Source of the DNA: an uncultured delta proteobacterium
GTDB taxonomy: Bacteria > Desulfobacterota > Binatia > UBA9968
Length of the DNA stretch: 34,818 bases
Direction: 5' to 3'
Assembly (NCBI GenBank): GCA_963840855.1
Contig: CAWJBB010000044.1
Coordinates: 1 to 34,818, forward strand
In this document: in pieces, positions 17,214 to 21,532 of the stretch
Numbering within the stretch: position 1 is the stretch's first letter
How the letters are laid out: each line of letters begins with the position of its first letter
Translations under genes and position numbers: made by a program
The notes under the pieces: generated by a model
Databases searched by the model: none
Seen by the model: only the letters and a program-made list of their open reading frames with translations
Told to the model about the DNA's origin: nothing

Positions 17214-17795
17214 CTATTTTTTGCCCTCAGGGCGGGCCAAGCTCGCTTCCACGTACCCCGGTTTTCTGCCTTGCTTGGACTCAACTTTGAGCCAACCCTT
17301 CTCTTCTTCGACGACGTTGAGTTTCATGCCCTTGGGAATCTCGGCGACCACGGGATAATGAAGCCCGGGGCCGCTGCGCACTTGCGTGTTCACCAGGGTT
17401 ACGTACTTCCCCTCCACCGGGCGCGGCGCGTCGGCTTCCTGCTCCTCTCCCTCGCCGGGTTTCGCCGACTCTTTGTCGATATAACCCGGCGCATTGCCTT
17501 TCTTCGAGACGATCAAAAGCCATTCGCCGTCACGTCCCACCACGTTGACTTTAGCGTTGGGTCTGATTTCGCCGATGATTTTGAATTGCTCTCCCGGCCC
17601 GGTGCGCACTTTGGCTAATTCCACGATAACATAAGGGCGAGTCTGCTTGCTCAAATCGGGTAAATCGTCCGAGACGACTTGGTCCTGTTTATTCTTGCAC
17701 GCTCCAAGCGTAAGGGACAGCAATGAGACAAGTACGCACAAAAAAATATGCTGGCAGCGCAACATGTGCATGGTCCTCCCGCTCTTGTGGTTCAA
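17214..17795 (-). CDS. Lipoprotein with two bacterial SH3 domains
   Basis: Lipobox LGAC; two repeats VRxGPG..EI..NVV..WL..GY. Start may be a downstream ATG. Confidence 0.85.
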   Translation of the reverse strand: MNHKSGRTMHMLRCQHIFLCVLVSLLSLTLGACKNKQDQVVSDDLPDLSKQTRPYVIVELAKVRTGPGEQFKIIGEIRPNAKVNVVGRDGEWLLIVSKKGNAPGYIDKESAKPGEGEEQEADAPRPVEGKYVTLVNTQVRSGPGLHYPVVAEIPKGMKLNVVEEEKGWLKVESKQGRKPGYVEASLARPEGKK

Positions 17796-17841
17796 AGTGA
17801 ATTATAGCACATGGCGGCCGGGCGGCGATGGGGCTCGGTCA

Positions 17842-17931
17842 GTTCAACGTTCAAGGTTCAATGTTCAAAGTTAAACTCGGAACAGCGAACGGGAATCCCA
17901 TACCTTGAACGTTGAACTTTGAACATTGAAC
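17842..17931. repeat. Palindromic array: 4 x GTTCAAN, spacer, 4 x NTTGAAC (7-bp period)
   Basis: gttcaac gttcaag gttcaat gttcaaa ... cttgaac gttgaac tttgaac attgaac, directly downstream of the trp operon's last gene. Confidence 0.92.
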
Positions 17932-17946
17932 CGACACTGCCGCGAG

Positions 17947-18366
17947 TCAGCGTATCTCTTTCCACACCTTGGCCAGGCTTTCGCCGTAGACGCTTAGATC
18001 CCACTCGCAAAAATAACCGAAGGGCGTGATCCAAACTTTATAGCCGGTTTCGCGCAGCCGTTCGGCCAAGTTGGTTATAGATGCTTCGGCATAGGCCGGC
18101 GGTGCGGTCTCGCCACCCAGATGAGCAAATGAGTGCAACACGATATTATTTAGTTCTCTCTTGTTGGCGAGCCACTTGAGATGCTTGAGCGTCTGGCGCT
18201 GTACCGAGGTTTTTCTGTCCTCCTCGGCGTCGCGCGCTTCGGCGTGGATGAACACGACCAGGGTTGCTTCCACTGTCTGATCCACGTCCTGGGCCGGCAC
18301 TTCCGGCAAGGTCTTAGAGTGGGTCTTCCAGCGAAAACGCTTGGCTTGGAAGCAGAGCAGTTTCAT
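17947..18366 (-). CDS. Stand-alone archaeal-type threonyl-tRNA synthetase editing domain (DTD-like fold)
   Basis: LVVFIHAE, SFAHLG, TPFGYF..L..YGESLAKVWKEI resemble the archaeal ThrRS N-terminal domain (FAHL, PFGYYK, GHPLAE); 139 aa. Confidence 0.8.
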   Translation of the reverse strand: MKLLCFQAKRFRWKTHSKTLPEVPAQDVDQTVEATLVVFIHAEARDAEEDRKTSVQRQTLKHLKWLANKRELNNIVLHSFAHLGGETAPPAYAEASITNLAERLRETGYKVWITPFGYFCEWDLSVYGESLAKVWKEIR

Positions 18367-18376
18367 TGCCGGCGCA

Positions 18377-18943
18377 TCAATAGTAATCGAGAAAATTCTT
18401 GAGCAGTTTCTTGCCTTCTTCGCTGAGAATCGACTCGGGGTGAAACTGCACGCCTTCGATGGCGAGGCTCTTGTGACGCACCCCCATGACGACGCGATCT
18501 CCTGTTTGCGCGCTGATCCTCAGTTCGGCGGGAAGGGTTGCCGGATCGATGACCAGCGAATGATAGCGCATGGCGGCAAAGGGATTCTTGAGCGAGCGAA
18601 AAATGGTTTGCCCGTCATGCGATACGTTGGAAAGTTTTCCATGCATGATTGACGGCGCGGACGCGATGGCGGCGCCGAAGGCTGCGCCGATGCATTGGTG
18701 GCCGAGGCAAACTCCCAGGATCGGCGTTTGTCCGGCGAAGCGGCGGATGAGATCGCATGAGATGCCGGCCTCTTTGGGGGTGCACGGGCCGGGTGAGATG
18801 ACGATCTTTTCGGGATTCAAATCGCTGACTTCGTCGAGGGTGATCTTGTCGTTGCGAAAGACCGATACCTCCGCACCCAATTCGCCGAGGTAGTGGTAGA
18901 GGTTGTAAGTGAAGGAGTCGTAGTTGTCGATCAGCAGGATCAT
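18377..18943 (-). CDS. trpG: Anthranilate synthase component II (glutamine amidotransferase)
   Basis: [27 protein letters not shown]; ATGA overlap with trpE. Confidence 0.93.
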
Positions 18944-20427: not shown

Positions 20428-20433
20428 GAATGC

Positions 20434-20475
20434 AAAAAACCAAAAGGGCCACAAGTTTCTCACCTATGGCCCTTT
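20434..20475 (-). terminator. Attenuator (intrinsic terminator) upstream of trpE
   Basis: Minus strand AAAGGGCCAUAGG-UGAGAAA-CUUGUGGCCCUUU (13 bp including G-U pairs) followed by UGGUUUUUU. Confidence 0.85.
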
Positions 20476-20591: not shown

Positions 20592-20620
20592 ATTTTGCCG
20601 GATTCGACCTTGACGGTCAA
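20592..20620 (-). promoter_or_regulatory. Sigma70-like promoter for trpL-trpEG
   Basis: TTGACC (20620-20615), 17 bp, CAAAAT (20597-20592). The predicted start site falls at or next to the leader ATG (20584). The -35 sits in the palindrome CTTGAC-G-GTCAAG. Confidence 0.55.
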
Positions 20621-20676: not shown

Positions 20677-20752
20677 TAAAACGCCTTTTTGAATGGCAAG
20701 TTTTTCTGGCGTAAATTACCCGGGACTCGTGCGCGATTTCGGGGAGGGGATT

Positions 20753-21532
20753 ATGGTCCGGCGTGAAAAATCCAACTATGTAATCCAATCCGTTTCCCAT
20801 GCTTTGGATGTATTGGAGCAATTTAACGGCAATGTCGAAGAGATCGGCGTCACCGAGCTCAGTAAGCGACTAAAGCTGCATAAGAATAATGTGTTTCGTT
20901 TGCTCGCGACGCTCGAGGCGCGCGGCTACATCCAGCAGAATAAATTGACCGAGAACTATCGCCTCGGTCTCAGGTGCTTGCAGTTGGGCCAGACTTTTAT
21001 TCAACAGATGGGCCTGCTGCTCCAGTCGCGGGCGGTTCTCGAAGACCTGGCAAAGACAACGAAAGAAAGCGCCTTCGTGGCCGTGCGCAAGGGCGCCGGC
21101 ATCGTGCCGCTGGATTTCGTCGAACCGCTACGCGCGGTGCGAGTGGTATCATTTTTGGGCACCGCGCTGCCGGCCCATTGCACGGCGGCGGGGAAGATCT
21201 ATCTGGTGTTCGAGTCGGAAGGCGACCTCGGCCAGAATCTGGGGAGTGGTCTCAGACGCTATACGGGCAAGACCATCTGCGATAGCGACGCGCTTGCGGC
21301 GCAAACCAAAGAAATTGGGGCGGCGGGATACGCGGTGGAGCTGGAGGAGTTCACCGAGGAGGTCAGTTCGGTGGCGGTGCCGATTCGGGACTATACCCGG
21401 ATGTTGGTCGGTGCGATGGCGGTGGTGGGACCCAGTCAACGGTTAACCTCCGATGTGATCAAGCACGATGTCGCGCCGAAAATTGTGAAGGCGGGCGACG
21501 AACTTTCCAAGCGCCTGGGGTATCCGGGTTAA
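20753..21532 (+). CDS. IclR-family transcriptional regulator
   Basis: IQSVSHALDVL, HTH (GVTELS..LHKNNVFRLLATL), PAHCTAAGK, SVAVPIRD; SD GGAGGGG. Confidence 0.93.
   Translation: MVRREKSNYVIQSVSHALDVLEQFNGNVEEIGVTELSKRLKLHKNNVFRLLATLEARGYIQQNKLTENYRLGLRCLQLGQTFIQQMGLLLQSRAVLEDLAKTTKESAFVAVRKGAGIVPLDFVEPLRAVRVVSFLGTALPAHCTAAGKIYLVFESEGDLGQNLGSGLRRYTGKTICDSDALAAQTKEIGAAGYAVELEEFTEEVSSVAVPIRDYTRMLVGAMAVVGPSQRLTSDVIKHDVAPKIVKAGDELSKRLGYPG

Follow-up and report, generated by a model that had tools for sequence, protein, structure and literature searches.

A free-standing archaeal-type threonyl-tRNA synthetase editing domain with a remodelled pocket, encoded behind trpE and trpG in an uncultured Binatia bacterium

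Why would a bacterium encode, directly behind its genes for anthranilate synthase, a small protein that resembles the editing domain of an archaeal threonyl-tRNA synthetase (ThrRS)? The question is raised by contig CAWJBB010000044.1 of assembly GCA_963840855.1, from an uncultured member of the Binatia (UBA9968). We analysed a stretch of 34,818 nt of this contig, called the window below, and all coordinates are window coordinates. The gene of interest, called ED here after the editing domain, encodes 139 amino acids and follows trpE and trpG on the same strand (Table 1). A preliminary description of the locus had pointed out the archaeal-type domain, its altered motifs and its place behind a tryptophan attenuator, and had suggested a trans-editing factor with another substrate, possibly induced by Trp starvation. 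Our analysis confirmed what had been observed and partly supports how it had been interpreted. The explanation that we prefer, with modest confidence, is that the ED protein forms homodimers and deacylates, in trans, an acyl-tRNA other than the classical substrate, and that in this lineage it is co-induced with trpEG.

A free-standing editing domain with altered pocket residues

The ED protein matched the Pfam family tRNA-Thr_ED (PF08915) over its full length, with residues 1–138 aligned to positions 1–137 of the 137 in the profile (E 1.9e-35; 122.4 bits against a cut-off of 30.2). The same Pfam search gave no match of the protein to Tyr_Deacylase (PF02580), the family to which D-aminoacyl-tRNA deacylase (DTD) belongs. 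An AlphaFold2 model built with 48 homologues reached a pLDDT of 97.4. In Foldseek, this model superposed on the ThrRS editing domains of Pyrococcus abyssi, Methanocaldococcus jannaschii and Aeropyrum pernix with TM scores of 0.87–0.93, root-mean-square deviations of 1.4–2.1 Å and E-values of ~1e-15 to 1e-12. At these TM scores, 18 entries of archaeal N-terminal domains were listed, including 1y2q, 2hl1 and 4rrf, and DTD formed a clear second tier (TM ~0.7; 9–13% identity). The profile match and the model together confirm that ED encodes a free-standing archaeal-type ThrRS editing domain with a DTD-like fold, as had been proposed before. For the ED family as a whole, the relation to the archaeal domains rests on comparisons with chains in the PDB.

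Unlike the archaeal domain, the ED protein is unfused. Its reading frame holds a single domain, with neither a ThrRS core nor an anticodon-binding domain attached. In NCBIfam, the protein hit only the N-termini of the models for archaeal ThrRS and for Ser-tRNA(Thr) hydrolase; because both fall far below their cut-offs, the stand-alone form has no curated family there. The search for longer proteins with the ED domain returned three, none of them a synthetase, a number too small to argue from. Two of these, both of 444 amino acids and in single-member clusters, carry a ComEC-type metallo-β-lactamase (MBL) fold domain N-terminal to ED, and the third contains a partial domain.

Like the archaeal domains and DTD, the ED protein is predicted to form a homodimer. 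The prediction with two copies gave a symmetric dimer with a score of 0.86, compared to 0.02 for the best control; three runs agreed in at least 97% of the contacts, with a partner pLDDT of at least 92. Of 30 proteins whose solved structure is a pair of one chain, 20 passed the mark set for this score; of 23 with a solved single-chain structure, 1 did. Dimers of the similar archaeal domains have already been solved, and hence the pass may be a matter of memory and is read here as likeness to them, not as independent proof. The predicted interface comprises residues 119–130 and 132–135. Strand 118–126 pairs across the axis, and residues 119 and 120 contact residues 128–130 of the partner chain.

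The pocket of the ED protein differs from the archaeal one at several positions. Residues were mapped onto the P. abyssi chain, whose numbering is used below for archaeal positions, by aligning both the ED protein and a profile of 48 family members (E 3e-30) to it with HMMER. The archaeal motif PFGYYK reads PFGYFC (Tyr120 to Phe119 and Lys121 to Cys120), and GHPLAE reads GESLAK (His130 to Glu129, Pro131 to Ser130 and Glu134 to Lys133), so that the by-eye reading of the preliminary description was upheld by proper alignment. In addition, PFAHL reads SFAHL (Pro80 to Ser79), preceded by a change of Tyr79 to His78. Retained are His83 (as His82), the PFGY segment, and the adenine-stacking pair Phe117-Gly118 (as Phe116-Gly117).

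What these positions do in the archaeal enzyme is known from published work. Seven side chains lie within 6 Å of the scissile bond, namely Pro80, Phe81, Ala82, His83, Tyr120, Lys121 and, from the partner chain, Glu134 (PMC4491819). Lys121 positions the catalytic water; the mutants K121M, K116M and K122M of the P. abyssi, A. pernix and M. jannaschii domains were severely compromised or inactive, while the side chains of Tyr120 and Glu134 proved dispensable (PMC4491819). The archaeal pocket accepts only small side chains, and catalysis uses the 2'-OH of A76; DTD carries Met at the position of Lys121 (PMC4491819). Phe117 is the invariant adenine-stacking residue of the fold (PMC3845328). His78 of the ED family probably corresponds to Ser87 of DTD, which holds the ribose 2'-OH through its side chain; this match derives from the offset of residue numbers quoted in the papers.

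The changes extend across the family. Among 66 full-length representatives, none has Lys at the position of Lys121; instead, Cys (22), Leu (21), Asn (11) or another residue (12) is found. The position of Glu134 holds Lys or Arg in 64 of them. Conservation is high at His78 (63/66), Ser79 (60/66), His82 (64/66) and Gly117 (63/66), and position 116 is aromatic in 65 of the 66 (Phe 52, Tyr 9, Trp 2, His 2). The pair Phe116-Gly117 was retained in all 101 close homologues. The family shows strong purifying conservation.

The trp operon and other genomic contexts of ED

Upstream of trpE, the locus shows the layout of an attenuator as in enterobacterial trpL attenuation: a short reading frame that holds a cluster of Trp codons, then an intrinsic terminator and the trpE start codon (Table 1). 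This agrees with the earlier claim that the operon is headed by a Trp attenuator. The leader RNA folds with −72.2 kcal/mol (z −3.7). Its segment CACCUUGGC can pair with GCCAUAGGUG of the 5' arm of the terminator, which makes a candidate antiterminator, read by eye from the fold. In contrast to the enterobacterial leader, this one has no Rfam match: at gathering thresholds no Rfam family was found in the window, which sets the leader apart from known Rfam elements, and no T-box was detected. A search for tRNA genes across the window with ARAGORN was negative. Another difference from the enterobacterial operon is that the window operon contains only trpE, trpG and ED, while the remaining trp genes are found elsewhere, with trpB on a different contig. 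The genome has a single ordinary trpS. A gene for an IclR-family regulator (20693–21532, plus strand) is divergent from the leader region, and the promoter-like site of the trp genes lies in the shared intergenic region.

Table 1. Features of the trpE-trpG-ED locus in window coordinates.
Feature	Position	Strand	Details and basis
ED gene, free-standing tRNA-Thr_ED (archaeal ThrRS N-terminal editing domain-like, DTD-like fold), 139 aa	17947..18366	-	Open reading frame with ATG; PF08915; PDB alignments; AlphaFold2; Foldseek; homodimer model
Key residues of the ED protein			H78, S79, F80, H82, F116, G117, F119, C120, K133
trpG-ED spacer, 10 nt (TGCGCCGGCA)	18367..18376	-	Without Shine-Dalgarno-like run, promoter-like or terminator-like site
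trpG (anthranilate synthase component II)	18377..18943	-	Pfam GATase 1.9e-59; TIGR00566 261 bits, above cut-off
trpE (anthranilate synthase component I), 495 aa	18940..20427	-	ATG 20427 as most likely start; TIGR00564 trpE_most 570 bits, cut-off 517.7
Leader intrinsic terminator	20433..20475	-	14-bp stem, then TGGTTTTTTG (T-run); terminator scan and RNA fold
trpL-like leader peptide reading frame, 26 codons	20504..20584	-	MKKRLEVAVLEWLWWRGRHARPRHLG; WLWW with three Trp codons at 20551-20540; sequence
Promoter-like site	20592..20620	-	TTGACC-17-CAAAAT; consensus match only
Palindromic element of GTTCAAN heptamers, immediately behind the ED stop	17841..17932	.	One copy of a genome-wide dispersed repeat
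SH3-domain lipoprotein gene	17214..17771	-	Pfam SH3_3; own TATAAT (17806-17801) and GGAGG (17779-17775)

Within the operon the genes are tightly packed. The likely start of trpG, with GGAGG upstream, overlaps the trpE stop as ATGA, and ED begins directly behind the short spacer after trpG, as described earlier. A scan for promoter-like and terminator-like sites found none in this gap or close to it. The spacer layout suggests co-transcription and translational coupling of trpG and ED, in line with the proposal that ED probably lies on the trpL-trpE-trpG transcript as its last cistron. Five runs recorded as RNA share small parts of the searched sequence. Metatranscriptome contigs from four runs (three studies) cover the locus in patches, and the gaps between these carry no information; two contigs are used here. 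One soil contig of 312 nt, with nine differences, spans 18283–18594 across the trpG/ED junction, and one of 241 nt covers 17849–18093, the 3' end of ED and the palindrome behind it. Together they are a weak hint of co-transcription, as carry-over of DNA into the RNA libraries is possible.

The order trpE-trpG-ED is conserved. It was found at 12 of 21 ED loci in the window genome and 40 relatives, and at 25 of 80 loci in a scan of GTDB genomes, i.e., at 37 of 101 loci in both sets together. The spacer between trpG and ED measured 1–39 nt in 24 of the 25 linked loci of the GTDB scan, and 242 nt in the remaining one. Of the 22 linked loci with upstream sequence, 19 have a leader rich in Trp (such as WWRW or WRRW) before trpE. 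We placed the 101 loci in a quick maximum-likelihood tree (IQ-TREE, 139 columns, SH-aLRT support only), in which many forks remained open; the 101 rows represent 92 different sequences, with several rows from the same genome. All 37 linked rows fell within one Binatia clade of 52 rows (SH-aLRT 94). The other 15 rows of this clade are unlinked, and at least four changes of state are needed to explain the pattern. At ED loci outside the Binatia clade, no trpE or trpG was found within ~6 kb. Linkage to trp in relatives, which the preliminary description had put forward as a check, is therefore conserved across several genera and at the same time confined to one clade.

The 64 unlinked loci belong to Chloroflexota, Planctomycetota, Myxococcota and other Binatia, and their neighbours differ. 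When the neighbours at the 80 loci of the GTDB scan were clustered, with clusters 1, 2 and 8 consisting of overlapping-frame reading frames over ED and trpG, no family was common to the unlinked loci beyond 8 of the 64. The neighbours include Amdase and xanthine-dehydrogenase-like genes, OCD/mu-crystallin, and a luciferase-like oxidoreductase with GST and MFS genes. Peptidases also occur. In eight Chloroflexota loci, ED is preceded on its own strand by a gene for an M19 dipeptidase, at a distance of 1–3 nt in four of them. Two of the eight loci have a reading frame of 462 amino acids 12 nt downstream of ED, which in one of them is named as an M20 dipeptidase. The M19-ED-M20 arrangement looks like a tight dipeptidase-ED-dipeptidase unit. 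Furthermore, an adenosine deaminase gene (L057:4826-6004) overlaps the start of ED by 4 nt in a Byssovorax metagenome-assembled genome, and in two Chloroflexota loci the gene just before ED encodes a ComEC-type MBL hydrolase.

One context points back to translation. In five loci of another Chloroflexota clade, ED lies 11–90 nt downstream of, and on the same strand as, a gene for a class II synthetase of 445–476 amino acids. The two of these five that were checked are asparagine--tRNA ligases (asnS), which score 533 and 518 bits in NCBIfam (cut-off 414). This linkage is an independent tie of the ED family to aminoacyl-tRNA biology. The asparaginyl-tRNA synthetase is not known to have an editing domain of its own.

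The altered residues do not follow the trp context. The sequences TPFGYFCEW and G[ED]SLAK are common to the 37 linked and the 64 unlinked copies. Cys120 is present in all 37 linked copies and in 48 of the 64 unlinked ones (Asn in 15), and Lys133 in all 37 and in 63 of the 64. The changes are traits of the family, special neither to the gene in the window nor to the trp context. Because the same motifs are fixed in linked loci and in unlinked loci of other phyla, they cannot be read as an adaptation to Trp, and the earlier idea that tied the changed specificity residues to the Trp context was not borne out.

What the ED protein may act on

As a deacylase acting in trans on an acylated tRNA, the ED protein would work much as the archaeal domains and DTD do, and the active site of each subunit would then be located at the dimer interface. 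The 3'-terminal adenosine of the tRNA would be held by stacking on Phe116-Gly117, and the 3'-ester would be hydrolysed by a water molecule activated by the 2'-OH of the tRNA itself. The acyl pocket around it appears remodelled family-wide, with Lys121 replaced by Cys, Leu or Asn, Glu134 by Lys or Arg, and Tyr120 by Phe, while His78 and Ser79 are fixed. In the archaeal domain, Glu134 reaches across from the other subunit to hold the α-amino group, and it contacts the seryl moiety together with Tyr120. Because the pocket is remodelled across the whole family, the target of the ED protein would not be the classical Ser-tRNA(Thr). A reasonable guess is an acyl group without a free α-ammonium group, or one with a negative charge. 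In the Binatia clade, ED would be the third cistron of a leader-peptide-attenuated trpE-trpG operon, and because of this location it would be made when charged tRNA(Trp) is scarce.

A substrate other than Ser-tRNA(Thr), as suggested in the preliminary description, is plausible given that K121M abolishes archaeal editing (PMC4491819) and that the ThrRS of the genome keeps a cis-editing domain. The same general proposal, hydrolysis of aminoacyl- or hydroxyacyl-tRNA, was reached as a hypothesis for free-standing homologues in Text S1 of Mukai et al. (2017). Several points weigh against a deacylase that is co-induced with trpEG. A tRNA substrate is suggested by homology alone, and most genomic contexts of ED are not related to tRNA. 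The loss of activity by mutation of Lys121 in three archaeal domains (PMC4491819) leaves room for a family without this residue to work by a different mechanism, or to bind but not hydrolyse. The case for co-transcription consists of the spacing, the lack of consensus signals and one RNA-library contig, and a promoter may lie inside trpG. Moreover, the ED protein is rich in Trp, and the linked copies, with 4.92 Trp per protein, do not have less of it than the unlinked copies (4.81).

A rival reading is a Trp-specific trans-editor induced by Trp starvation, which would clear D-Trp, an aromatic analogue, or Phe or Tyr mischarged under Trp scarcity from tRNA(Trp) and would thereby also keep the read-out of tRNA(Trp) by the attenuator honest. 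Consistent with this are the gene order trpL-trpE-trpG-ED across several genera, all in one Binatia clade of the ED tree, the tight spacers and the conserved Trp-rich leaders; and because the remaining trp genes, such as trpB, lie elsewhere, ED is tied to the regulated first step of the pathway. Yet ED occurs elsewhere in 15 of the 52 rows of that clade, and the same active-site motifs are found in the 64 loci of other phyla and other Binatia without trpE or trpG nearby. The archaeal pocket takes only small side chains (PMC4491819) and there is no sign here of an enlargement. The presence of a canonical dtd in the genome, on another contig, also speaks against this reading. Nor is the protein depleted in Trp: it has 5 in 139 residues, compared to none in TrpG and 3 of 495 in TrpE, which is ill-suited to a protein tuned for Trp starvation and speaks against the starvation role considered earlier. 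We therefore regard a Trp-specific editor as unlikely; of the earlier suggestion of a Trp or aromatic analogue as substrate, the conserved linkage in one clade stands, while the motifs do not track the trp context. A bolder version is that the Binatia recruited ED as a guardian of tRNA(Trp), induced by Trp starvation, that strips off the near-cognate or non-amino acyl groups which the tryptophanyl-tRNA synthetase would be prone to load when Trp is scarce. This is quite improbable in our view. If true, however, it would prevent mistranslation of Trp codons and keep mischarged tRNA(Trp) from giving a false signal of Trp repletion at the WLWW leader, and ED would give a synthetase that lacks an editing factor its first one, wired into the very attenuator that it protects.

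Alternatively, the protein might be a classical back-up editor that hydrolyses Ser-tRNA(Thr) and Gly-tRNA, as a trans-acting "third sieve" beside the N2 domain of the bacterial ThrRS. Its best matches are indeed archaeal Ser-tRNA(Thr) editing domains, with which it shares His83, the backbone segment PFGY and the adenosine site, and the archaeal enzyme can do without two of the side chains that are changed here, those of Tyr120 and Glu134 (PMC4491819). Against this, the lysine required in the P. abyssi, A. pernix and M. jannaschii domains (PMC4491819) occurs in none of the 66 representatives, 64 of which have a reversal of charge from Glu to Lys or Arg. The host, unlike that of the archaeal domain, also has a bacterial ThrRS with an N2 editing domain of its own, and a classical back-up thus seems improbable. 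This ThrRS comprises TGS, tRNA_SAD, core and anticodon domains. It contains the motifs HSTAH and DLCRGPH, which we take to be those of the N2 editing site of E. coli ThrRS, and its cis-editing site is apparently intact. Complementation of a split ThrRS by ED can be discarded, as the host enzyme has all of these domains.

A role outside tRNA biology is rather unlikely, although neighbours of ED are often peptidases or nucleoside enzymes. In such a role the protein would bind or hydrolyse a small ester of the aminoacyl- or acyl-adenosine type, or would act as a sensor of an adenosine ligand, in amino-acid or peptide metabolism. The M19 and M20 dipeptidases, the overlapping adenosine deaminase, and the ComEC-type MBL genes, adjacent in two loci and fused in two proteins, would fit this. 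The contexts vary by lineage, however, with none shared by more than 8 of the 64 unlinked loci; all members of the fold that have been characterised act on tRNA (PMC5802732 and PMC3845328, in the parts available), and asnS is linked to ED in yet another clade. A second chiral proofreader, i.e., an analogue of DTD, is very unlikely. It would share with DTD and animal ATD the fold, a non-basic residue at the position of Lys121 (Met in DTD; PMC4491819) and the free-standing, trans-acting and (for ED, predicted) homodimeric form. Yet the Pfam family of DTD is not matched, and the DTD motifs SQFTL and NxGPVT, the latter with the cross-subunit Gly-cisPro (PMC5802732), are missing from the ED protein, which reads HSFAHL and GESLAK instead. 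Of 41 genomes, which include two unpublished ones, 21 had both ED and dtd, 4 had only ED, 11 had only dtd, and 5 lacked both. Canonical dtd thus co-occurs in 21 of 25 genomes with ED, and the genomes in which dtd was not found show no enrichment of ED. Complementarity between the two was accordingly rejected, and D-aminoacyl-tRNA deacylation, one of the earlier suggestions, is unlikely as a replacement for DTD, also because dtd is present in the window genome itself.

Breadth of the family and the 3' side of the gene

The ED family is large. Relatives of similar length form 2751 clusters at 90% identity and 386 at 50%. A GTDB scan with an alignment of 12 sequences found them in at least 552 species genomes, in groups including Binatia, Planctomycetota, Chloroflexota, Myxococcota, Verrucomicrobiia and Margulisiibacteriota. 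The ESM Atlas yielded further PF08915 clusters only, most commonly from Myxococcota, Nitrospirota and Bacteroidota.

The family was already catalogued in 2017, and the window locus is one more member of it. Text S1 of Mukai et al. (2017; mBio 8:e00561-17) describes free-standing tRNA-Thr-ED homologues as widespread among prokaryotes and nearer to ThrRS editing domains than to DTD. The homologues keep the residues that recognise aminoacyl-adenosine, except for the equivalent of M. jannaschii Glu135. In archaea, small tRNA-Thr-ED genes accompany clade VII SepCysS (Mukai et al., 2017); fusions to SepRS were reported later, together with the reliance of the isolated domain on the discriminator U73 (Mukai et al., 2022; Front Genet 12:794509). 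The ED protein agrees with the proteins in these two papers in its single domain of ~135–140 amino acids without an anticodon-binding domain, in its closer relation to the archaeal ThrRS domain than to DTD, and in the change at the equivalent of Glu135. In contrast, the available parts of these papers focus on the archaeal SepCysS-linked copies and the SepRS fusions, in which the serine recognition motif is completely conserved. ED is bacterial, has the equivalent of Lys121 replaced as well, and lies in a Trp-attenuated trpEG operon, a context not mentioned in those parts. Beyond these two papers, our search found no literature on the bacterial free-standing form.

The DTD-like fold has been divided into three functional classes, namely DTD, the N-terminal domain of archaeal ThrRS, and animal ATD (PMC5802732). 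A fourth branch, bacterial and free-standing with a rewired pocket, is present in at least 552 species and would be a matter of translation quality control. To this family the trp locus adds a concrete and conserved regulatory handle. The trp attenuator in one soil lineage, together with the asnS and dipeptidase contexts, could offer experimenters a short list of tRNAs and conditions.

The palindrome directly behind ED (Table 1) consists of four GTTCAAN heptamers in tandem plus the reverse complement of these, and has an RNA fold of −58 kcal/mol (z −5.5). With at most one mismatch, GTTCAANGTTCAANNTTCAA occurs 586 times in the 7.1-Mb genome, compared to 0 occurrences of the reversed control, and its copies are often inverted pairs 60–80 nt apart. 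The palindrome is a dispersed element similar to repetitive extragenic palindromes (REP) or miniature inverted-repeat transposable elements (MITE), and it likely serves as a 3' boundary or stabiliser of the trp-ED transcript. Some RNA-library contigs match the arms of the palindrome alone, with loose ends. The next gene, for an SH3-domain lipoprotein, is probably on a separate transcript. ED looks like the last cistron, because it is followed by the palindrome and then by this SH3 gene with its own TATAAT and GGAGG.

The SH3_3 protein has a lipoprotein-type signal peptide (…LSLTLGAC), and its gene is found downstream of ED in most of the trp-linked loci, as clade synteny. A near-identical trpE-trpG-ED-SH3 arrangement is present on a second contig of the same assembly (C45:1944-2357), with 100% identity for ED, 97.9% for TrpG and 99.5% for SH3. 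The estimated contamination of the assembly is 8.27%, and this second copy is probably derived from a second strain in the bin rather than from a true duplication.

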